64,000 nt of DNA. Source: an uncultured Candidatus Saccharibacteria bacterium. Its GTDB lineage: Bacteria > Patescibacteriota > Andersenbacteria > UBA10190. Below the pieces are notes generated by a model. The model had not been told where the DNA came from, searched no databases, and saw only the letters and a list, made by a program, of their open reading frames with translations. Below are positions 2,524 to 54,966 of the stretch, in pieces. The stretch covers positions 3,217 to 67,216 of the forward strand of contig CAYVFG010000003.1 of the NCBI GenBank assembly GCA_964450915.1, written 5' to 3'. The stretch's first letter is position 1. Every line of letters starts with the position of its first letter. The position numbers and the translations under genes were made by a program.

Positions 2524-2777
2524 GAAGAGAAAGGTAGTACGGTTTTTTCTTGCTCGTATTACGCTAACGCCAAGTCCTCAATTCTCTTTGCAAACATCTT
2601 AATATCCGCAAAGAACTTCTCAAAATCCAGCTCTTTTGGTTTAACGATTTTTGAAGGATGTTCACTATTAATCCCCTATTGCAGGAATAAAGGGATTTGC
2701 AATAATTAGTCATTTACATAAATCTAGAAACAGGGACGAATCTGCACAATCAAACTGAATAGAAAAGGAGTCGAATC

Positions 2778-3764
2778 ATGAAGGGCTCAAGTTCTCCTAT
2801 TATTGCAAGAGGTGATTCAGGGGAGGTTGTTAGGACGTTAGTAACCTGTGGCCAGGTGTATGAGTTTGATCCTCAACGGGTACGTCCTTTTCCGGACCAA
2901 ATTCGAAAAAGATTTACTGGGATCAAGCGGCTAGCTCTTAGCATCCGTTTTGTGGGACAAACCAATCCGGGGAAGGTTCGCTTGGTGCATGACGATCCCC
3001 AATACGACGCAGAGCTCATTGATGGTGAGCGTCGCTTAAGAGCGGTTTTGCTCATTCCAGACAGGAGGTTTAAGGCATTTGTTGAGGATGGTATTGAGGA
3101 CGTTGCTACTCAATATGAGCATTGCGTAGCTTCCAATTTTGGAAGGCAAGACCATGATCCGCTGGAGATTACCGCATCGATCAGTCGTTTTCAGCAAGAT
3201 GGGAAGAAAAATGCCGAAATCGCTCAGATTTTTGGAAAGTCAGAGGGGTGGGTAAGTCAGTATTTAAGTTTGGCCAAACTTGCTCCCGAAGTTCAGGCGA
3301 TGCTGACTCCTCCTGATGAAGACGAAGATGAGCGAGGGGTTTCTGATGTCGACGCGAATGAAAAAAATCAACTTCAAATCTTCCGCCCCACTCTTCCGTT
3401 TTCAGTAGCACTGTTGTTGGTGCGGCTCGCTCACGATGTTCAGGTTGATGTTGCGAAGAAGATTATGAGCGATGGTATGTCGGCATCCGCTGCTCGACGA
3501 CTTGTTCTTAATCAGCTTCGCGAATCTCCTGGTGGGGACAAGAGACGTCTTCGGCCAACCGAGCAATGGCAGAGTCTGGAGCGTCTCGCGAGGCAGACAA
3601 AGGATCGTTTCGGGGTTTTTCTCGATCTGGGCAGTAAGGATTTTTTGCAGGTCGTGAAGGCTTCTGGAGCAGGAAATCGTGGTGCTCTAGAGGAAGGGTT
3701 GCGCGCCCTTGTTGCGGATCTTACTGAGCTTGCCGATAGTATAAGTAAGATTAAGGATGATTGA
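2778..3764 (+). CDS. orphan ParB/Srx-fold DNA-binding protein (ParB N-terminal domain + HTH)
   Basis: 328 aa. SD AAAGGAG 6 nt upstream of the ATG. ParB box motif LIDGERRLRAV, HTH NAEIAQIFGKSEGWVSQYLSLAKL. No adjacent ParA. Confidence 0.6.
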   Translation: MKGSSSPIIARGDSGEVVRTLVTCGQVYEFDPQRVRPFPDQIRKRFTGIKRLALSIRFVGQTNPGKVRLVHDDPQYDAELIDGERRLRAVLLIPDRRFKAFVEDGIEDVATQYEHCVASNFGRQDHDPLEITASISRFQQDGKKNAEIAQIFGKSEGWVSQYLSLAKLAPEVQAMLTPPDEDEDERGVSDVDANEKNQLQIFRPTLPFSVALLLVRLAHDVQVDVAKKIMSDGMSASAARRLVLNQLRESPGGDKRRLRPTEQWQSLERLARQTKDRFGVFLDLGSKDFLQVVKASGAGNRGALEEGLRALVADLTELADSISKIKDD

Positions 3765-22307: not shown

Positions 22308-22756
22308 AAAGAGCCCCGGTCGCACATTTCTTTTTCAAGATATGTGCGCCGAGGCGAAAAGGTCTTCATTGCATGTCACTAATAAATGATTGCGCGGTCC
22401 AGGCCTGTTTATATAGGCGTTCCTAACAGGGAGGTCAACTCGATGAGTGATTCCACTGAGGTTTCTGGAGAAGTTCAATCATTATTGCCGATCATGCGCC
22501 GAAGGGTTCTTGTCGTTGCGAGGGAGGTTGAGGGTCGCGCGTCATCGTCACGTAACCGTGGTGTCCGTGAAGAGTTATCGTGTTCCTCATAGGCTCTCCT
22601 TTCTATCGGTTGGTGAACCGTCGCAAGCCAGCTGGATCAAGAGGGATCCTCCTTGTGATGTTTTTCAACTAATCTGATCGCTGGAGCAATACAGGTTTCG
22701 TTAGCACAAACATCACTATGTAAATGTGCTAGTTACTACTATATTCTTCCCGTTAT

Positions 22757-22780
22757 TTTTGTCAAATTATTTTGACAAAA
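22757..22780. promoter_or_regulatory. 10-4-10 palindrome TTTTGTCAAA-ttat-TTTGACAAAA (operator-like; left half doubles as a -35 box)
   Basis: Perfect inverted repeat. The same palindrome recurs at 51521-51544. Confidence 0.5.
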
Positions 22781-22789
22781 ATAAAACAG

Positions 22790-23133
22790 CCTCCGGAAGT
22801 GTTGAAACACTTCACGGAGGACTGGGCGCAGGGCTCAAAGGGTGATCAGTCTCTCGTTGATCAAGCCTTCAAGCCGGGCGCAAACCCTTCCACAGCGTCA
22901 TCTTAGCGGGCCGCAGACTAAAAGTCATTGCCATAAGTGGTCGCTTTCCACGCATTCGCGATCGTGGAAGGGGTAGACACGCTGCTAATCGCAGCGTACC
23001 TAGGGGGGCTCAAGAGGATGCATCGGGGCTTCCTTTGGTGGTAGACGAATTCGGTCCGGCTTACTTCGACACGCAACCATTGCGCATCAGTCGCCGACGC
23101 CGATCAGGCCAGGGCTGCGGTCGGGGCTTTTTT
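22790..23133 (+). ncRNA. rnpB: candidate RNase P RNA (type A-like, reduced)
   Basis: No ORF. Promoter-like TTGTCA-17-TAAAAC upstream. P4-like complementary strands AAGCCGGGC (22880-22888) and CCGGCUUAC (23056-23064), the latter within ACGAAUUCGGUCCGGCUUAC, which resembles the conserved ACAGAAnCCGGCUUA. Multiple GC-rich hairpins. Ends in a GC hairpin plus T6 terminator (23094-23133). Confidence 0.35.
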
Positions 23134-23337
23134 CAAACAATAGAGGGGAGAAGCGCTGCAACTGAGCCGACTGGGATCCTTCATGATGCTCCTTTCGAGC
23201 CTTGGGTTGGTGTGCTGATGGGTTGCATCCGCACGAAGAACAAAACTGACTTTAGACATAGTAGCTTTATGTTCTATTTTTGTCAAATCTATTTATACTA
23301 AAATAATAAAAAATTGCTTAATTGAGCAAAAATAAAA

Positions 23338-23520
23338 CCCCTGCGGTTAATGTACTCGATTGAGTAGATTAAAAGAGGGGCGAATATGCCCGGAGCGACT
23401 AAGAGATTGCTCGCTTGGTCCCCCGGTACACGCTCTGCAAAAACGCGGGCCAACGCTGCAGAGCTAAGACTGATGGAAAGGTGCAACTAACTACCGCTAA
23501 CCTAGCAGAGAGTTGTTTTT
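23338..23520 (+). ncRNA. candidate structured sRNA (unknown family)
   Basis: Preceded by TTTTTGTCAAAT box and an A/T-rich promoter-like region. Hairpins CCCCU...AGGGG, GAGCG...CGCUC, GCUCUGCA...UGCAGAGC. Ends with a T7 run. No ORF. Confidence 0.25.
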
Positions 23521-43119: not shown

Positions 43120-44499
43120 ATGGGACTTGGACGAGGACTAGCATCACTTATTTCACGCCGCGACAATCAATCCGCTGACGATGTGCTCGAGCAGATCGAT
43201 AGCATGGAGGAATTAAATGAAGAAACGGGCGTGGTGCGCGATTTTCGAGATTTGCAGCGGGATGCTGATGATGAAGTGATTGCTGCGCCAAAAAAACCAC
43301 TGGTAACTCCTATTTTCTTGGATCCGGAGGATGCTCGTATGCACGAAGATGAAGTGGCGGAAAAAGTTTCTATTACAAAAGTTGTGGTGGAAGAAAAAAA
43401 TGAAGATATCGAAGAAGAGCCTGCGGAAGTAGAGGTTGAGGAAGTGGAGGTTACCGAGGAGCCGGCTGTTGAAGAGAAAACGGAACCAGTTACGCCAGAA
43501 GTTGAACTACCTCGTCCCGCCCCGCAGGGCGAGGCTCGCTCTGAAGAGCGGCCAGAAGAGCCCGAGGAGGCGGAAGATGATGACGATGTGTCTGAGGTAC
43601 TAGTTGCTCAGGCAATGAAGTACGACGGCATCTGGGACCGACACGAAGATACTGTTCGCCATATTCCTGTTGCAGATATTACCATTAACCCTCTCCAGCC
43701 GCGAAGATCGTTCGATGAAAATGAATTAAAAGATTTGCAAGAATCTATTTCAAAGAACGGAATTCTTCAGCCCTTGGTTGTTCGCAGATTGGATAACGAC
43801 AAGTTTGAATTGATTGCAGGGGAGCGGCGCTTGCGTTCTGCAAAGGCTCTTAAATGGGAAAAGGTTCCATGCGTTATTCGAAAAGATGTTTCTTCTGACC
43901 AATCTCGATTAGTGTTTGCGCTTGTCGAAAACATTCAGCGAGAAAACTTGAATCCAATTGAAGAAGCGCTGGCATATAAGCAGCTTAATGAGGATTACGG
44001 ATTGACTCATGAAGAAATTGGTCAGCGAGTAGGGAAGAGTCGTGTTGGTGTAACGAATATTGTCCGCGTATTGCAACTCCCTGCTGAAATTCAACGCGGA
44101 ATGGTGGAAGGAAAAATTACGATGGGACATGCAAAGGCAATCTTGATGATTCCGGATCCGGAAAAGCAAATTCGATTCTATCATCATTTGGTTGATGAAG
44201 GGCTTACGGTTCGAAAAGCAGAGCTCCGTGCCCGCAGAATTCAGCGAACGATGGTGACGGGCGTTTCAACTCCTCGCAATCGATTTAAGGATCGCCATCC
44301 ATTGTCGCTCAAGTACACACCCATGATCGAAGAGCGATTCGGATACTTAACTCACATTAAATACGAAGAAGATAAGAAGGCATTTGAAGTTGTGCTTCGC
44401 GCAACAAACGATAAAGAACTAGAAGAGCTTGTGGGCCGCTTACTAGGCCAGCGCTCATTGCCATCCAACGACCTGGATCGCGACGTGATTGAGGATTAG
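43120..44499 (+). CDS. parB: ParB/Spo0J chromosome-partitioning protein with ~170-aa acidic insertion
   Basis: Canonical N-terminal GLGRGLASLI peptide, then a Glu/Val/Pro-rich low-complexity region, then ParB box (ELIAGERRLRSAK), HTH and dimerisation domain. Confidence 0.9.
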   Translation: MGLGRGLASLISRRDNQSADDVLEQIDSMEELNEETGVVRDFRDLQRDADDEVIAAPKKPLVTPIFLDPEDARMHEDEVAEKVSITKVVVEEKNEDIEEEPAEVEVEEVEVTEEPAVEEKTEPVTPEVELPRPAPQGEARSEERPEEPEEAEDDDDVSEVLVAQAMKYDGIWDRHEDTVRHIPVADITINPLQPRRSFDENELKDLQESISKNGILQPLVVRRLDNDKFELIAGERRLRSAKALKWEKVPCVIRKDVSSDQSRLVFALVENIQRENLNPIEEALAYKQLNEDYGLTHEEIGQRVGKSRVGVTNIVRVLQLPAEIQRGMVEGKITMGHAKAILMIPDPEKQIRFYHHLVDEGLTVRKAELRARRIQRTMVTGVSTPRNRFKDRHPLSLKYTPMIEERFGYLTHIKYEEDKKAFEVVLRATNDKELEELVGRLLGQRSLPSNDLDRDVIED

Positions 44500-48685: not shown

Positions 48686-51604
48686 TTATTCGGCAAGCGA
48701 GGAAATTATTTGTTGTATCAATTCAGGCGTTATTGTATCGGTGTCCCAAGAGATCGTGCTTTCGCGTGCTTGCCAGCGGGCTGGTGTGCCGTTTTGATTT
48801 TTTATTGCAGATAATTTTTCGAGGATTTTAACTGGATCTTTTCCGGTTACCAGTAATCGAACGTACGGATCTTCGTCGTTTGGTCGAATTGTTTTTGTCT
48901 GCATTGCGGTAATTCCGCACGCTGTTGCGGCCTTTTCCAGCTGAATCATGAGCGACAAATTTTGCACTTCTTCAGGAATTGCTCCAAATTCTTCTTTCAA
49001 ATTTTTTATATAATTTTGTAATTGTTCAACTGACTTCGATCGAGAGAGGCGAATGTACCACATTGTTCTGGTGTCGGTATCTGGAATAAAGCTTGCAGGA
49101 ATATATGCGGGCAGCATTGTATGGATGTCTGCGCGTTGTATTTCTGTCTCTCCCGCATCATCAACCATATCGAGATACATATACATGCCGACTGCCGACG
49201 CAGAACCGCTTTGCTCGGCGCCCATTAGATTGCCCGCACCGCGCAACTCCAAATCTCGTCGTGCAATATCCCAGCCGGAACCTTGGCGAGTGGATTCCGT
49301 GAGGGCTGTTAAGCGCTGACGTTGCATGTCTGTTAATTTTTCTTGGGAGTATAGAAACAATGCATGACCTTGTCTTGAGCGTCTTCCGATTCTTCCTCGC
49401 AATTGATACAGCTGCGCTAATCCGAAGTGCGGAGCATTCCAAACAATCATCGTATTTGCATTTGGTAAATCCAAGCCGTTTTCAACGATACTGGATGAAA
49501 TCAAGATATCCAGTTGGTGTGTGTCAAATGCGTGAATGATTGCGCTCAGCTTTTCGTCGGGGAGCTTGGCATGTGCAATGGCGATGCGCGCATGGGGTGC
49601 AAGTGCTTGAATGGTCTCTTTAATCATCGCAAGGTTTCTAATCTTAGAAGAAACGATATATATTTGCCCGTCTCTATCTAATTCTTGAAATAATGCTTGG
49701 GTAAGCGCGCTATCTGAAACTTTTTTAATACTCGTTTCGATATTCTTTCTGCCTTTTGGAGCTGTTGCAATAACAGAGAGGCTTCGAAGGCCGGACAATG
49801 CCATGGATAGTGTTCGTGGAATCGGCGTTGCCGAAAGCGAGAGAACGTCGATAGTTGATCGCATCTTTTTTAAGTGCTCTTTATGCTTTACGCCGAATTT
49901 TTGTTCTTCGTCGATGATGAGCAAGGATAGATTTTGCCACGGGATGGAATTGCTCAGTATTGCATGTGTTCCAATGACGATAACAGGTTTGCCATCCGAA
50001 ATAATTTGCTTTGCTTTTTTTATTTCTTTTTGCGAAGAAAATCGTGAAATTAAAAAGATGGAATCCGATATATCGGATAAGCGTTCTTTAAATGTATCCG
50101 CATGCTGCTGGACTAACAGCGTTGTTGGTGCAAGCAGAGCGATTTGCTTGCCATTTGCGAATGCATGGCGGGCTGCGCGCATGGCAAGTTCCGTTTTTCC
50201 GAACCCAACGTCGCCGACCATGAGCCTATCCATGGGTATATCTTTTTGCATGTCTGATTGAATATCTTGCCAGGTGGTTGCTTGGTCTGGCGTCATTTCA
50301 TACGGAAAAGTCTCGTCGAGCTTTTTCTCGATAGTTGCATCTATATAATACGGGCTTCGTTTCGCCTTCTCGCGTTCTTTATTGATTGCGATAAGTTCTT
50401 TTGCGAATACAGCAGCATCGTGTTGCGCTTTTTTCTTTGTTTTTTGCCATAGGGTACCGCCTAAGCGATACAGTGCGGGCGAGCTTTCTCCTATATATGG
50501 GGATACTTTATGCGCAAACGCTACGGGTACGGAAAGCGTATCGCCGTCTGCATAACGCAACACAATATATTCTTGTTCCGCATTGTCTAACATCCTTTTT
50601 TCTAGCCCCTCAAATATTCCGATACCATGGTCTGCGTGCACTGCCGGCCTGCCGGGAGTAAGCGCTCCGATCAATTCCAGCGCTCGCTCTTGCGATATTG
50701 GCGATGAGTACGTCTTCGAAGATTTGCTGATAGCTCCAGGGATTACGGGCATTTGAATTTCTTGCAATCGTGTTGGTAGTATAATGTCCGGATGTTTTGA
50801 AGCTGTAATAATAGTTGTTGCAGTAGGGAAGTGCGCTTGCTGAGGAGCTATAACAACAAATTTTTTAAATGCTGTTTCAAGCTTTTCTGTTTTTTGTGGG
50901 AATGAGAGCGGAGGAATTGCAACGGAGTGTTCGTTTTTTGCACGATTCTTTTTTCGAACAATAATTTTATCAATCGTATTCCCAAAAAAAGAAATAGAAA
51001 TAGGATGCTCAAAAAGAGGATGCGAGATGCGCGCTTCATCTCCTATAATATAAAATCCGGACCCGGCTTGTTTGCTGCTGTGGCGAATATATCCTGTTGA
51101 TACTAATGTTTTTGCAAGTTCTGTAATGGAGTACGTTTGGCCGAGAGTGAGATGAAGGATGCGTGCTTGATATTCTTCGCTGCTCGGAAATTGCATGTCT
51201 GCAATACTTTTCGGAACATAGTATGATCTGGGGAGATTACTAAGGAGCGCATGAGCGGATGTTGAGAGTTTTGTAGATATAGTACCGTCCAGTTCTTGCT
51301 CTGTGAGCTGGTCGGTGATGATATGTTCTATTCCCCATTGTTCTGCCGAATGGGTCTCGGTATGCGAGCTTATGAGCGCAATAGGAGAAGTGATTTTGCC
51401 CGAAATCGTGCTTGCGAACATCATATTGAGATTTTCGGGTATAGAAACGAGCACCTTTTCAGGGGAAATTGTCAGTTCCGTTGAGACGTCATGCAGAAAC
51501 TCCTCCCATTCTGGTTGGTATTTTGTCAAAATGCTTTGACAAAATTGAGATAGGCCTATGATTGACATTCTTATATTGTTACTGTACATTCTGTTTTCAA
51601 GCAA
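48686..51604 (-). CDS. mfd: transcription-repair coupling factor Mfd (compact form)
   Basis: RNAP-interacting domain, DEAD/DEAH helicase motifs (GDVGFGKTELAMRAA, TATPIPRTL), TRG motif, C-terminal D7. The start is uncertain and may be an internal ATG near 51424, which would leave the 51521-51544 palindrome intergenic. Confidence 0.8.
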   Translation of the reverse strand: MLENRMYSNNIRMSIIGLSQFCQSILTKYQPEWEEFLHDVSTELTISPEKVLVSIPENLNMMFASTISGKITSPIALISSHTETHSAEQWGIEHIITDQLTEQELDGTISTKLSTSAHALLSNLPRSYYVPKSIADMQFPSSEEYQARILHLTLGQTYSITELAKTLVSTGYIRHSSKQAGSGFYIIGDEARISHPLFEHPISISFFGNTIDKIIVRKKNRAKNEHSVAIPPLSFPQKTEKLETAFKKFVVIAPQQAHFPTATTIITASKHPDIILPTRLQEIQMPVIPGAISKSSKTYSSPISQERALELIGALTPGRPAVHADHGIGIFEGLEKRMLDNAEQEYIVLRYADGDTLSVPVAFAHKVSPYIGESSPALYRLGGTLWQKTKKKAQHDAAVFAKELIAINKEREKAKRSPYYIDATIEKKLDETFPYEMTPDQATTWQDIQSDMQKDIPMDRLMVGDVGFGKTELAMRAARHAFANGKQIALLAPTTLLVQQHADTFKERLSDISDSIFLISRFSSQKEIKKAKQIISDGKPVIVIGTHAILSNSIPWQNLSLLIIDEEQKFGVKHKEHLKKMRSTIDVLSLSATPIPRTLSMALSGLRSLSVIATAPKGRKNIETSIKKVSDSALTQALFQELDRDGQIYIVSSKIRNLAMIKETIQALAPHARIAIAHAKLPDEKLSAIIHAFDTHQLDILISSSIVENGLDLPNANTMIVWNAPHFGLAQLYQLRGRIGRRSRQGHALFLYSQEKLTDMQRQRLTALTESTRQGSGWDIARRDLELRGAGNLMGAEQSGSASAVGMYMYLDMVDDAGETEIQRADIHTMLPAYIPASFIPDTDTRTMWYIRLSRSKSVEQLQNYIKNLKEEFGAIPEEVQNLSLMIQLEKAATACGITAMQTKTIRPNDEDPYVRLLVTGKDPVKILEKLSAIKNQNGTPARWQARESTISWDTDTITPELIQQIISSLAE
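51521..51544. promoter_or_regulatory. 10-4-10 palindrome TTTTGTCAAA-atgc-TTTGACAAAA in the mfd/trmB-like divergent region
   Basis: Perfect inverted repeat with half-sites identical to the element at 22757-22780. Followed by TTGACA-17-TACATT promoter-like spacing before the 51612 ATG. Confidence 0.5.
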
Positions 51605-51611
51605 CCCCCCT

Positions 51612-52394
51612 ATGGAATTTATCCAAGAATTAATGAGCTTAGGTTTGAAGGATAAGCAAGCATCCGTCTATCTTTCGTGTCTGCAATTAGGGCCTTCTCC
51701 TGCCCAGTATATAGCAAAAAAGGCTGACGTAGTGAGAGCTACGACGTACGTGATCTTAGAAGAGCTGATGGCGTTAGGGCTTGTGACGAAATACAAGGAA
51801 GGGAAGAAGACCATGTTTTCCGCAGAAGCGCCTCGGCAATTATTGCGACTACTCGAAAAGCAAGAAGAGGAAATCCAAGAAAAACAAAAAGATTTGGAGC
51901 AAATTTTGCCAGAATTGCAGATGCTTACAAAGGCACTAGGCGACAAACCGTCAGTTCGATACTTCGAGGGGAAAGAGGGTTTAGCTGCAATTCGAAGAGA
52001 TTTGGTTATGTATTCACGCCCAGAGGATACCATCTACAATTTTACTCCTGCTGACCATCTTGTGGGCGTTTTCCCCGATGACGAGCATACGAACTATGTG
52101 CAGCGTGTTGCGAAAGGAATTAAAGGTAAAACGATATTTTCCACAACTTCTGAACAATTGAGAAAGTATTGGTCATCTCAGGAGTTTAGTCGACATACAG
52201 AACGAAGGTATGTTCCGCATAATAAGTTTCCTGTTCCAGCAGGCATGACGATTTATCGAGACAGGGTTGCTATTGGATCGTTTACTGGTAAATTGTTTGG
52301 TGTAATCATCGAAAGCGAGCAAATGGCAAACATGATGCGAGCGCTGTTTGATCTTGCTTGGGAGTCTGCAAAAAGCATTGACGAAAAAGAATAA
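51612..52394 (+). CDS. TrmB-family transcriptional regulator
   Basis: N-terminal winged HTH (LGLKDKQASVYLSCLQLGPSPAQYIAKKADVVRATTYVILEELMALGLV) plus C-terminal sensor-like domain. Start at MEFIQ. Confidence 0.7.
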   Translation: MEFIQELMSLGLKDKQASVYLSCLQLGPSPAQYIAKKADVVRATTYVILEELMALGLVTKYKEGKKTMFSAEAPRQLLRLLEKQEEEIQEKQKDLEQILPELQMLTKALGDKPSVRYFEGKEGLAAIRRDLVMYSRPEDTIYNFTPADHLVGVFPDDEHTNYVQRVAKGIKGKTIFSTTSEQLRKYWSSQEFSRHTERRYVPHNKFPVPAGMTIYRDRVAIGSFTGKLFGVIIESEQMANMMRALFDLAWESAKSIDEKE

Positions 52395-52636
52395 ATAGAT
52401 TAAACTCTAAGTATTCGATTGGGAATTCTCGAGAACCTAAATCGGATTATCAGGGGGTAATTCTCTGATATAGGGCGTCGTTACTAGGCCGAATTCTTTG
52501 GAGGAGGAAATGCGTCATGACCCATTGACCGTATCCGTCTCTTCACGGAAGAAGAGACCAGCGACCCGAGCAGGAGTGCACATTTCATAAGTTCGCTTGA
52601 TGCGTTACGCGAACTTGCACAGAGTTTCAGACTCGA

Positions 52637-52672
52637 CCCGATTGAGACCTTCTGGTTTCATCGGGTTTTTTC
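52637..52672 (+). terminator. rho-independent terminator
   Basis: CCCGAT-tgagaccttctggtttc-ATCGGG followed by TTTTTT. Confidence 0.7.
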
Positions 52673-52700
52673 TTGCATATTCTACATAAAGTGTTATAGT
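52673..52700 (+). promoter_or_regulatory. sigma-70-type promoter TTGCAT-16-TATAGT
   Basis: -35 at 52673-52678, -10 at 52695-52700. Confidence 0.6.
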
Positions 52701-52703
52701 AGC

Positions 52704-52812
52704 GGCTCCTGCTCCAAAGCGGTAAACGCAGGGTACCTTGGAAGGTGCTCGCCGCTTTGTAAGGGGGGGCCCGGGGCGCAGCACATGTTGCGCTTCCGGG
52801 TCTTTTTCTTTT
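52704..52812 (+). ncRNA. ffs: candidate 4.5S/SRP RNA (small bacterial type)
   Basis: ~105-nt hairpin RNA bounded by promoter and terminator. 5' GGCUCC...AAAGCGG pairs with 3' CCGCUUU...GGGGGGGCC. Apical region CAGGGUACCUU-GGAA-GGUGCUCGCC resembles the SRP helix 8 pattern CAGGUCAGGUCC-GGAA-GGAAGCAGCC. Ends in a CCCGG...CCGGG hairpin plus U-run. Confidence 0.45.
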
Positions 52813-52967
52813 GACACGCTTTTCTGTTTCAAGGTACATTTATGAGTCCTTTTCACTATTGTCATCATCGTTCTGCCAGTTAAGAATATTTCACTGGAAT
52901 CACCCCCTCCTAGATTCCAGGAGATACCTTGCTGGCGGAACATTGCGGACAATAGTACGATAAAGCG

Positions 52968-53540
52968 ATGAAGCACGTTTTAGTTGTTGCATTAGGAAAT
53001 CCTGGGGAAAAATTTAAGAATACGCGGCACAATCTTGGCCAGGATACTGTGTTGAGCTGGGTTGAGTTGATGCGAGAAAAGGGTGCAGATGTGCAGGCGG
53101 TCCAATCAAAAGAGTCGTTGCACTCGCGTATTCAGGAGGTTGTTTTTAATAATGCAAAGATAACTGTTTTATATCCGGATGTATTTATGAATGAGTCCGG
53201 GAAAGCGGTGATGCAATATCTGCGATATAACGAAGTTGATCATGAGAATATTCTTATTGTTCATGATGATTTGGAATTGCCATTAGGCGAGGCGAGGTTG
53301 CAAGAATCCGGAAGCGCAAAAGGGCATAACGGCGTTCGCAGTATTCATGAATATGCAGGAACATTAGATATTCCAAGATTGCGAATTGGTATTGGGCGGC
53401 CAGAAGATCAGAAACCTATTGATGTGTTTGTGCTCGAAAGGTTTACAGAGCAAGAGCGAATGATTTTAGATAGCAAGAAGCAAGGCGTGCTCGATGCGAT
53501 AACTGAGGCTATTGCTGCACCTGGTCTGATCCGACGATAA
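52968..53540 (+). CDS. pth: peptidyl-tRNA hydrolase
   Basis: MKHVLVVALGNPGEKFKNTRHNLG N-terminal signature, catalytic His and Asp. Confidence 0.9.
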   Translation: MKHVLVVALGNPGEKFKNTRHNLGQDTVLSWVELMREKGADVQAVQSKESLHSRIQEVVFNNAKITVLYPDVFMNESGKAVMQYLRYNEVDHENILIVHDDLELPLGEARLQESGSAKGHNGVRSIHEYAGTLDIPRLRIGIGRPEDQKPIDVFVLERFTEQERMILDSKKQGVLDAITEAIAAPGLIRR

Positions 53541-54966
53541 CAAGTATATCTGCTTTTGTTTTCGCTTCCGCAGATGGGATATCTGTTGCAGACGATGCGT
53601 TTAGGCTGGATGCGATTTTCGTAGCATCGTCAGACTGGGTGACATTCGGAGAGTACACCGTTGTTTTTGTTATTGTTTTTGAAGCGGCATTGCCTGTCGC
53701 AATAACCTTATACCCGAGCCCTTTGAGTTTTGTTGCCGTTTTTCCTGCAAGGCCGGTGGTGCTTGTTCCGTTTCGAACTTCGATTGTGGCAGAGGAGGAT
53801 GTTGGAGTCGAGCTTGCGTTTGGAGTGGGTGATGCTGACGGAGAAATGCTTGGAATAATATCTCCATTCGCATCAATATTATGTACGGTTGTATCTGCTT
53901 GATTCGCAGCTAAGTCCGTCCCTGTTGATGACGCGAACATATTTTGTGCCAGTGTTTTGATTTCTGAAAAATCTCCTGTTCGTGTTTTTAATACAGATGC
54001 GGGAACACCGCCGAGCATTACGGTGTCGCTTTTTAAGATGCCGTTCGGACCAGTGCTCATGACATCGGATTTGTAGCTCGAAGGGTCGATCTGGCGGAAC
54101 AATTCAAAAAATCGTTTCATTTCCCATGTCTGCATGTCTGTTCGAATATTTTCAGACAAAGACGAAAATATTCCGCTGATCGCATTGAAATCAAGCGCAG
54201 TCGATACGGAGAATACTTTGTCGCGGATCGCAAGAACCACTTGTTGCTGTCGCGCGGTGCGCTTAAAGTCTCCTCCCTCGGGGCCTTCTACATATCGAGC
54301 TCGGACGTACGCAAGCGCCCTATCCCCGTTCATTGTTTCTGTTCCGGCAGGGAAGGCGATTTTGTGCCAGTAGTCAAAAAATCCATTATCAATTTTGATA
54401 TTGACGCCGCCCACTGCGTCCACGATCTTTTTAAATGCGGTAAAGTCTACTCGGGCATAATAATCCATTTTAAGTCCGGTAATCTCCTCTACTTTTTGTT
54501 CAAGCAAGGAAGCTCCGCTTCCCGGTTTTGCCGCTTCTCCGTATGCGTTCACTGCATTTAATTTAGAGTAGAACTGCTGGCCCGGCACTTGCACGTATAG
54601 GTCGCGCGGAAGGGAGAGGAGAGAAATCTTTTTCTCCTTTGGTTGAATGCTCGCGATCATAATAGTGTCGGTAAGGTTCGGCCCGTCGTGTCCGTCTCCT
54701 CCAATTGCCATAAGAAGGATATTGATTCGGTCCTCCTGTTCGCCTTTTAATTTGTTGCCTGATTTAAAGAGGAGATCTGAAAGTTGTCCGAAGATTGTTT
54801 GGTTTGCAGTGCTGATACTGTTGCTGGCAGAAAGAATCTTATATCCAAATACTCCTGCGCCAGTTAAAATGAAAATAACGAGAACTATAAGGATGGCTCG
54901 CGTAATACGAAATGCTTTTGAATGCCCTTTATGTGGTTCTTCCATGTCTTGCATATCATACTGCAT
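53509..54966 (-). CDS. LCP (LytR-CpsA-Psr) family cell-envelope phosphotransferase with C-terminal LytR_C-like domain
   Basis: N-terminal TM, RINILLMAIGGDGHDGPNLTDTIMIASI core, Ser/Thr/Pro-rich linker, LytR_C-like tail. The 3' end overlaps pth by 32 nt (convergent). Confidence 0.8.
   Translation of the reverse strand: MQYDMQDMEEPHKGHSKAFRITRAILIVLVIFILTGAGVFGYKILSASNSISTANQTIFGQLSDLLFKSGNKLKGEQEDRINILLMAIGGDGHDGPNLTDTIMIASIQPKEKKISLLSLPRDLYVQVPGQQFYSKLNAVNAYGEAAKPGSGASLLEQKVEEITGLKMDYYARVDFTAFKKIVDAVGGVNIKIDNGFFDYWHKIAFPAGTETMNGDRALAYVRARYVEGPEGGDFKRTARQQQVVLAIRDKVFSVSTALDFNAISGIFSSLSENIRTDMQTWEMKRFFELFRQIDPSSYKSDVMSTGPNGILKSDTVMLGGVPASVLKTRTGDFSEIKTLAQNMFASSTGTDLAANQADTTVHNIDANGDIIPSISPSASPTPNASSTPTSSSATIEVRNGTSTTGLAGKTATKLKGLGYKVIATGNAASKTITKTTVYSPNVTQSDDATKIASSLNASSATDIPSAEAKTKADILVIVGSDQVQQ

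Follow-up and report, generated by a model that had tools for sequence, protein, structure and literature searches.

The gene pth encodes peptidyl-tRNA hydrolase (Pth); it is essential, and its regulation is poorly understood. For decades minigenes have, to our knowledge, been described solely in phages or as synthetic constructs, and as poisonous to cells in which Pth is limiting. In Escherichia coli, minigenes of 2–8 codons generate peptidyl-tRNA and are toxic when Pth is limiting; their products drop off as peptidyl-tRNA and burden Pth (PMC2490762). Here we describe the interval in front of pth in a 64,000-nt stretch of contig CAYVFG010000003.1 (hereafter the window), whose source, judged by the Pth homologs, is Candidatus Andersenbacteria, a member of the Parcubacteria in the candidate phyla radiation (CPR). 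The interval between the stop codon of a gene for a TrmB-like regulator and the pth start codon measures 573 bp (52395–52967). It holds three conserved RNA elements, each behind a consensus promoter of its own, which we call units A, B and C; the cluster is confined to one Candidatus Andersenbacteria clade. We are confident that the three units are conserved, that none of them matches any Rfam family, and that unit B is not the RNA of the signal recognition particle (SRP). An earlier reading of the same interval, made from the letters without database searches (the sequence-only reading), had described a short open reading frame (ORF) with a terminator, followed by an RNA resembling SRP RNA. 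All of the sequence features that it listed are present in the interval; a second ATG at 52517, the promoter of unit A and the whole of unit C were absent from it.

We compared the window with 13 related, syntenic Candidatus Andersenbacteria loci (numbered with an L), the Pth proteins of which are 48–90% identical to that of the window. The best-conserved DNA motif of the gap was used in exact-pattern scans of genome and metagenome collections to find further relatives. The same pth contig also turns up in SRR8931222, SRR8931208 and SRR8931241, and the nearest metagenome-assembled genome is GCA_021414205.1. About 12 distinct gap sequences were obtained, with 13 copies of unit A (locus L021 has a tandem pair). 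They represent about 10 independent lineages for units A and C and three for unit B. The gene order is mfd (−), TrmB-like (+), gap, pth (+) and LytR-family (−) in all loci, and the gap of the relatives, 440–765 bp in length and roughly 470–630 bp except in the two most distant loci, splits into three promoter-led units as well. The counts of consensus elements in the region are not above chance (4 promoters, 2.5 expected; 2 terminators, 1.2 expected). The features are judged to be real because they are conserved in the relatives, not because of these counts, and conserved promoters precede each of the three units. The coordinates are collected in Table 1.

The three units match no described RNA family. 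A search of the whole window with the 4227 Rfam families returned only a tRNA-Leu at the gathering score, and a search of 52350–53000 at E ≤ 10 returned only junk matches with E > 2. No family was matched at the gathering score over the 13 related loci. SRP RNA, transfer-messenger RNA (tmRNA), RNase P RNA, 6S RNA, T-box and all other Rfam families were rejected as candidates for the gap, being unmatched at E ≤ 10, with the same outcome in the relatives, and ARAGORN found no tmRNA. Further copies of unit A, B or C were not found elsewhere within the window. In the genome and metagenome scans, the hairpin of unit C is restricted to Andersenbacteria, apart from three chance matches (L023, L027 and L028). 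Two longer ORFs, one of 50 residues at 52811–52963 (+) and one of 123 residues at 52605–52976 (−), were rejected as coding sequences; in both cases the relatives have non-triplet indels, and conservation is at the nucleotide level with no codon pattern.

The last 160 nt of the gap, 52811–52967, are its best-conserved stretch and correspond to unit C. The promoter elements TTGACAC and (GA)TACAKT are conserved across the lineages. They are followed by an extended hairpin, a rod of roughly 45 bp with a minimum free energy (MFE) of −52.9 kcal/mol (z = −7.5). In an alignment of 12 sequences, 96.1% of the cells are paired and 9 of the 30 pairs are compensatory. None of 500 shuffles reaches the observed covariation score, and slid controls are 31–52% paired. 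The apical loop, 11–13 nt long and of the form A(A/C)CCCCUCC..., is invariant across all lineages. The hairpin of L030 combines an identical loop with stems that all differ, and it is again stable (z = −6.5). A covariance model of unit C scores 109–139 bits on the + strand and 20–44 bits on the − strand, with exactly one copy per locus. A palindromic DNA operator was rejected as an explanation of the hairpin, since the G·U pairs are valid on the + strand only, P0 and P1 carry compensatory changes, the stems of L030 are all different and the model is strand-asymmetric. Unit C thus has the property of a structured 5' leader, a covarying structure between a promoter and a start codon.

The hairpin of unit C ends 12 nt before the pth ATG. 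A TAC(G/A)AT box lies 5 nt before the pth start in most lineages (6–8 nt in L013, L015 and L021), and the box of the window, TACGAT, is probably the −10 element of a second, leaderless-type promoter for pth. Three further ideas about unit C were rejected. A pseudoknot between the loop and a GGAG directly after P2 would lack a linker, and L015 and L016 have not kept the GGAG. Pairing of the apical loop of unit B with P2 has no covariation behind it. An 8-codon ORF with a TTG start inside unit C (TTGCTGGCGGAAC...TAG) has lost its start in L014, L015 and L016. In L030 (Pth 48% identical), the gap is 765 bp long (935–1700 of that locus) and has roughly 300 extra nt, apparently structured, that separate the mini-ORF from unit C. 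Between unit C and a TATCAT-N6-ATG start of pth there is another strong hairpin; therefore, unit C of L030 may be a free-standing small RNA, as judged from this predicted arrangement.

The 3' end of 16S rRNA is universally GGAUCACCUCCUUA. The loop of unit C together with the adjacent stem, UGGAAUCACCCCCUCCUA, closely resembles this 3' end, and we take it to be a likeness of the anti-Shine–Dalgarno (anti-SD) sequence. Unit C might accordingly be imagined to work independently of unit A, either as a mimic of the 16S 3' end that titrates or senses a tail-binding factor, or as an RNase III-type hairpin that converts a long-leader pth mRNA into a short-leader one. The resemblance itself, a loop that stays invariant while the stems covary, the end of the rod so close to the start codon, and the preference of this genome for very short leaders would all suit such a role. 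However, every locus down to the most distant, L030, has both unit A and unit C, which fits a functional link between the two, and we regard an independent unit C as unlikely.

Unit A, which including its promoter spans 52378–52672, is found in every related locus and has no Rfam match. To judge from its sequence, it is an RNA with a promoter at one end and a terminator at the other, both its own. Its Shine–Dalgarno (SD)-like tract is the sole strong one in the neighbourhood. The promoter overlaps the stop codon of the TrmB-like gene, and TTGAC/TTGAT-17-TAnnnT is found at the same position in 12 of 12 lineages. Two or three hairpins precede the GGAGG-type tract in the relatives, and a hairpin with a U-run equivalent to that of the window closes the unit in all lineages. 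The two hairpins that the sequence-only reading had placed behind its 26-codon ORF, GTTCGC/GCGAAC and the terminator CCCGAT...ATCGGG with T6, were located and recur in the relatives. The ORF itself, from the ATG at 52510 to the stop at 52588–52590, is read in the sequence as described. The strong SD claimed for it is present; the claimed spacer of 5 nt holds only when counted from the first GGAGG, and the distance from the end of the G-tract to the ATG is 2 nt.

The G-tract and two start codons, ATG1 and ATG2, are kept in all 13 copies of unit A, with the tract 2–5 nt before ATG1 in each. ORF1, which starts at ATG1, is open for 15–27 codons in all 13 copies and for 25–27 codons in nine of them (per-copy shuffle chance 0.16–0.37). 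ATG2 lies 5 or 7 nt past ATG1 in a different frame, inside a small conserved hairpin, and the G-tract is spaced better for ATG2 (7–10 nt) than for ATG1 (2–5 nt). ORF2, which starts at ATG2, has three sense codons in 10 of the 12 copies tabulated, and in L029 in addition; two copies have five codons. Its stops interchange (TGA, TAA and TAG) and its inner codons vary (per-copy shuffle chance 0.12–0.25). Because these chances hold over roughly eight independent lineages, both the openness of ORF1 and the short length of ORF2 are non-random. ORF2 has the ribosome-binding tract, the start, the no more than about six sense codons and the stop that define minigenes of the lambda bar type. The most distant locus, L030, has the G-tract with a single AUG and an 8-codon ORF. 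In L021, the core of unit A is present in two tandem copies (2680–3035 of that locus), each with a G-tract, two ATGs, a 3-codon ORF and a GGA-type hairpin; the record of this locus is labelled 'uncultured Candidatus Saccharibacteria', and its synteny is Andersenbacteria-like.

Inside ORF1, a hairpin with a C-ANGGAN-G apex is predicted in 11 of the 13 copies, with the loops AUGGAA, ACGGAA, AAGGAA, ACGGAU, AAGGAU and AUGGAU, and it is unique within the window. Published CsrA/RsmE sites have this architecture, in which C-G closes an ANGGAN hexaloop and the ribosome-binding tract holds a second GGA. The GGA hairpins of unit A (C-ANGGAN-G) and unit B (UUGGAN), together with the G-tract, could thus be sites of the CsrA/RsmE type, with A and B as protein-binding decoys or targets. 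The second GGA is indeed there, in the G-tract about 35 nt upstream, and csrA transcripts have been reported in ultra-small groundwater prokaryotes (PMC9938205). On the other hand, tblastn with CsrA against the window and all fetched loci gave only noise with E > 2, GGA is not clearly enriched in unit A (about 7 by hand count, about 5 expected from the composition), and unit B has a single GGA loop. The count and the lack of a csrA match in the window or the fetched loci led us to reject unit A as a CsrA sponge. In addition, protein binding would leave the lineage-specific complementarity of B and A (see below) and unit C unexplained, and we consider sites of this type unlikely.

The layout of unit A (promoter, ribosome-binding-like tract, short ORF of conserved length and stop position, hairpins and terminator) is also that of a classical ribosome-mediated attenuator of pth, in which a ribosome on the leader ORF gates the terminator at 52637–52671 and read-through reaches pth. 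Where unit B is missing, the terminator of unit A abuts the pth-proximal promoter, and in E. coli minigenes or short ORFs are known to be functionally connected with Pth (PMC2490762). However, the 13 copies share no run of regulatory codons. No conserved antiterminator for the left arm of the terminator was found in 10 lineages; the best upstream partners are weak (−5.6 to −14 kcal/mol) and sit at non-homologous positions. Moreover, the ORF1 stop is 46–77 nt upstream of the terminator with other hairpins between them, and one or two conserved promoters, in some lineages also a second terminator, lie between unit A and pth. Of the leader or attenuator proposed in the sequence-only reading, the leader-type mini-ORF, open in every copy, is partly borne out; a classical switch is less likely, given the lack of a regulatory codon run and of a consistent antiterminator, and the intervening promoters. 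We judge attenuation of pth by unit A to be improbable, somewhat more so than the two explanations above.

The sequence-only reading had offered a micro-protein as its other explanation of ORF1. An ORF open at a similar length in all copies behind a strong G-tract could encode a functional 26-residue peptide. However, the ORF1 peptides are unrelated across the lineages, and the frame shifts between lineages relative to a conserved UGCAC motif. Three substitutions separate the window from L005 in ORF1, all of them nonsynonymous, and the window and L006 are nucleotide-identical in the 3' half, with no synonymous drift. A micro-protein was accordingly rejected and is very unlikely. An ORF1 that is open in every copy while its peptide is unconserved favours a translated regulatory ORF instead; readability and stop position are the selected property of the unit A frames, and the encoded peptide is not.

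Unit B is an accessory hairpin RNA. The sequence-only reading had described a promoter, TTGCAT-16-TATAGT, driving an RNA that folds as one long hairpin and ends in a terminal hairpin. The promoter is present and, with a TGT before its TATAGT, is of the extended −10 type; the same arrangement is found in L008 and L014. The RNA is about 110 nt long, with an MFE of −58 kcal/mol (z = −4.05 against shuffles). Three lineages, the clade of the window, L005 and L006, and those of L008 and L014, share its architecture: a short outer helix, a middle helix of 9–10 bp, a 5' bulge of 6–8 nt, an apical helix of 7–8 bp, a UUGGAN apex and a strong terminator. The helix sequences differ between the window, L008 and L014 while the fold is the same, indicating covariation. 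A covariance model of unit B matches only the window, L005, L006, L008 and L014 (82–129 bits). By this model, the unit is absent from L010, L012, L013, L015, L016, L021, L029 and L030, despite syntenic flanking genes.

In helix 8 of SRP RNA, a short helix ends in a GNRA tetraloop and is flanked by the symmetric (AGG / AGCA-type) and asymmetric loops that bind Ffh. The SRP RNA gene is essential, and an ortholog is expected in all close relatives. This architecture is not present in unit B. A UUGGAA/UGGA loop caps a helix of 8 uninterrupted bp, the fold is broken by nothing but a one-sided bulge of 7 nt on the 5' side, and the 3' strand lacks AGCA. An identity as the 4.5S/SRP RNA of this organism, which the sequence-only reading had proposed for 52704–52812, is therefore next to impossible: a hairpin RNA of roughly 100 nt with its own promoter and terminator and a GGAA apex invites it, and no other SRP RNA is detected in the 64-kb window (which says little, because the window is a small part of the genome), but no SRP model is matched even at E ≤ 10 in 52350–53000, at the gathering score in the window or in the 13 related loci, the Ffh-binding loops are missing, and eight syntenic relatives lack the unit. 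The fallback of the same reading, a compact small RNA to which it assigned no role, holds up, with promoter, terminator and covarying helices recurring in three lineages, and we take unit B, on this sequence evidence, to be an accessory small RNA of these lineages.

Near-repeats, CGGGTTTTTTCTTGCAT and CGGGTCTTTTTCTTTTGACA, flank unit B (52660–52680 and 52797–52816). In the lineages that lack the unit, a single copy of this junction links the terminator of unit A to the promoter of unit C. The near-repeats suggest that unit B arose, or was inserted, when the terminator/promoter junction was duplicated.

The best functional lead for unit B is its complementarity to unit A. Its 5' tail, CUCCUGCUC, and the end of ORF1, GAGCAGGAG, share a Watson–Crick match of 9 nt (shuffle p about 0.001). 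An invariant CCUGC in the tail is complementary to a GCAGG near the end of ORF1, the match measures 9, 7 (L014) and 5 nt across the three lineages, and the GCAGG core is found in unit A only in the B-bearing lineages. In addition, the bulge of unit B is complementary to the apical loop of the hairpin that directly follows ORF1. The sequences differ between lineages, AACGCA/UGCGUU in the window, UAGCAC/GUGCUA in L014 and AUGUG/CACAU in L008. Complementary runs in the cognate combinations of the window, L014 and L008 measure 6, 6 and 5 nt (shuffle p of 0.028, 0.004 and 0.041, respectively); non-cognate combinations reach 2–3 nt. We give an even chance to unit B acting by base-pairing with unit A, as these sequence matches would predict.

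The use of SD-like sequences in this genome bears on units A and C. An SD-like motif is found upstream of 6 of the 55 ORFs of the window, and GGAGG occurs in the window at the chance level (68 observed, 68.4 expected). Hexamers resembling TATAAT, i.e., −10-like, are enriched 5–12 nt before start codons (12 of 54 window ORFs). Because SD motifs are scarce and −10 boxes pile up before the starts, the mRNAs are probably mostly leaderless or have very short leaders. According to a published survey, about half of Parcubacteria have no detectable 16S anti-SD motif (PMC9297842). With SD use at chance in this genome and many Parcubacteria lacking the anti-SD, the conserved GGAGG tract of unit A and the CCUCC loop of unit C are unlikely to be ordinary ribosome-binding features. 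The two are 400 nt apart and both are exceptional here. Elsewhere in the window, GGAGG is spaced by exactly 120 nt (43206, 43326, 43446 and 43566) inside an ORF at 43120–44499, which indicates tandem 40-residue repeats in that protein.

When duplex partners of the unit C loop are ranked, the G-tract of unit A comes in the top three in every lineage and first in four of them. Across whole loci, the highest-ranking site for the loop lies within unit A in 4 of 12 cases, with unit A making up about 7% of the tiles. These predicted duplexes make pairing of the C loop with the G-tract of unit A possible, and we propose it only tentatively, with less trust than the pairing of B with A. Another strong predicted partner of the loop (−14 to −18 kcal/mol in L010, L012, L015 and L016) is a G-rich site in the 5' part of a HIT-family gene, about 4.17–4.2 kb downstream of the loop. 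This could be a coding-sequence coincidence or another target of the C loop.

As the best explanation of the whole, we favor a base-pairing regulatory RNA cluster centred on unit A and linked to pth, to which we assign a little less than an even chance. Unit A would be the hub, a translated mini-ORF or minigene RNA. The 5' tail of unit B would pair with the last codons of ORF1, and its bulge with the apical loop of the post-ORF1 hairpin. Unit C would be transcribed towards pth as a long, very stable hairpin, the anti-SD-like loop of which would pair with the G-tract beside the start codons of unit A. Pairing of A and C would tie the translation or availability of unit A to the pth leader, or the reverse, and A, B and C would jointly link the state of translation to pth. 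We infer transcription of the units, translation of the mini-ORFs, the A–C pairing and any effect on the level of Pth from the features described above.

Several points weigh against such a cluster. The promoters and terminators of the units are consensus matches only, and no consistent alternative structure joins the terminator of unit A to translation of its ORFs in the 10 lineages. The B–A complementarity was spotted post hoc, and in three B lineages only, compared with about 10 independent lineages of A and C. Its two contacts are parallel, not antiparallel, in topology; therefore, B and A cannot form a single continuous duplex. The A–C complementarity is short (5–8 bp), as any pair of SD-like and anti-SD-like sequences would give, and better-scoring sites for the C loop lie elsewhere in 7 of 12 loci. 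Covariation between A and C cannot arise, because the C loop is invariant.

A more specific form of the cluster has a small chance, about that of attenuation by unit A. It holds that pth is preceded by a dedicated translation-state sensor, in which the start of the unit A minigene or leader ORF is masked by the C loop and the end of the ORF is contacted by unit B. Ribosome occupancy of the minigene, or peptidyl-tRNA drop-off on it, would then feed back on Pth synthesis; the host would be one in which SD-led initiation is largely abandoned, and its lineage might even be without the 16S anti-SD. By analogy with E. coli, a minigene beside pth is an attractive, unproven functional link to Pth. A sensor of this kind, if real, would be the first regulator of peptidyl-tRNA hydrolase to be built on a natural minigene.

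Table 1 Predicted features of the interval upstream of pth, in window coordinates.
Feature	Position	Strand	Remarks
TrmB-like regulator gene	51558–52394	+	
Unit A promoter	52378–52406	+	−35 TTGACG (52378–83), 17-nt spacer, −10 TAAACT (52401–06); consensus scan
Unit A RNA, about 260 nt	52413–52672	+	hairpins, G-tract, two mini-ORFs, terminator
Unit A 5' hairpins H1 and H2	52414–52446, 52449–52469	+	
SD-like G-tract GGAGGAGG	52500–52507	+	
ORF1	52510–52590	+	26 codons and stop, MRHDPLTVSVSSRKKRPATRAGVHIS
ORF2 (minigene)	52517–52528	+	ATG ACC CAT TGA; 3 sense codons, other frame, SD spacing 9 nt
Hairpin GUCUCUUC-ACGGAA-GAAGAGAC	52537–52558	+	C-ANGGAN-G apex; inside ORF1
GAGCAGGAG	52568–52576	+	complementary to unit B 5' tail CUCCUGCUC (52706–52714)
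Post-ORF1 hairpin GUUCGC...GCGAAC	52591–52614	+	loop UGCGUU (52602–52607), complementary to unit B bulge
Unit A intrinsic terminator	52637–52671	+	CCCGAU...AUCGGG and U6
Unit B promoter	52673–52700	+	TTGCAT (52673–52678), 16-nt spacer, TGT-TATAGT (extended −10; TATAGT 52695–52700)
Unit B RNA	52701–52812	+	predicted fold
Unit B outer helix	52706–10/52762–66	+	
Unit B middle helix	52715–23/52751–59	+	
Unit B 5' bulge	52724–30	+	AAACGCA
Unit B apical helix	52731–38/52743–50	+	UUGGAA apex
Unit B terminator hairpin and U-run	52767–52803	+	
Unit C	52811–52967	+	
Unit C promoter	52811–52840	+	TTGACA, 18-nt spacer, TACATT; 10 of 12 consensus positions
Unit C extended hairpin	52856–52955	+	
Unit C P0	52856–63/52948–55	+	
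Unit C P1	52870–84/52928–41	+	
Unit C P2	52894–901/52913–20	+	
Unit C apical loop ACCCCCUCCUA	52902–12	+	invariant
TACGAT, 5 nt, pth ATG (52968)	52957–52970	+	no SD
pth (peptidyl-tRNA hydrolase)	52968–53540	+	

Two other regions of the window drew attention. At its 3' end, pth (+) shares 32 nt with the convergent LytR/LCP-family gene (53509–54966, −), and this overlap is kept in several relatives. Between ileS and the next gene lies a 1.1-kb ORF-free region (22308–23414), with an inverted repeat at about 22750–22785 that carries TTGACA boxes facing both ways, and a terminator-like hairpin with a U-run near 23100–23135. The sequence suggests that this region holds one or two unannotated structured RNAs of about 350–450 nt. 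The + strand candidate contains an RNase P-like CGGCUUAC string, and the region has no Rfam match even at E ≤ 10.

The practical outcome of the analysis is the removal of a false SRP-RNA annotation. The locus adds three RNA families without an Rfam match to the RNA biology of the CPR, which is almost unexplored, and is an example of SD-like and anti-SD-like sequences kept for a use other than general initiation. A conserved chromosomal minigene beside pth would make the link between early peptidyl-tRNA drop-off and Pth supply, suspected for a long time, directly testable.

Compared with known systems, the units show partial likenesses. Unit B resembles the bacterial small SRP RNA (4.5S; RF00169) in its length of about 100 nt, its single extended hairpin, its own promoter and terminator, and its GGAA apex; unlike SRP RNA (RF00169 and RF01854), it fails the covariance model, has no helix-8 loops and is not conserved in close relatives. 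The hexaloops AYGGAW/ANGGAN closed by C-G are like those of CsrA/RsmE hairpins and of the TwoAYGGAY motif (RF01731), but there is no Rfam match, and each unit has one such hairpin. The structured tiny-ORF RNA of unit A beside unit B, with short lineage-matched complementarity, recalls type I toxin-antitoxin and neighbouring small RNA pairs (tisB/istR-1 and bsrG/SR4), with the difference that the genes here are in tandem, not antisense or divergent, and that unit B is dispensable in most lineages. The ORF1 peptides, being hydrophilic and unconserved, are not membrane toxins.

Like the leader attenuators of trp, his and leu/phe, unit A has a short ORF between a promoter and an intrinsic terminator, and the readability of the ORF is conserved, not its peptide; unlike them, it has no regulatory codon run or detectable switch, it is followed by downstream promoters, and it has two overlapping starts. 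The CCCCUCC loop of unit C, complementary to a GGAGG tract near a start codon, is like the C-rich loops of RsaE/RoxS-type small RNAs and like anti-SD sequestering hairpins. In contrast to these, its hairpin is in the pth leader or directly upstream of it, the presumed target is the neighbouring mini-ORF RNA, and the host is otherwise without SD use. ORF2, finally, has the composition of the minigenes of phage lambda bar and of synthetic 2–8-codon minigenes (PMC2490762), namely a ribosome-binding tract, an AUG, two further sense codons and a stop. It differs from the lambda bar minigenes in that, known here from sequence alone, it is chromosomal, conserved, placed within a hairpin, overlapped by a longer ORF, and located beside pth.

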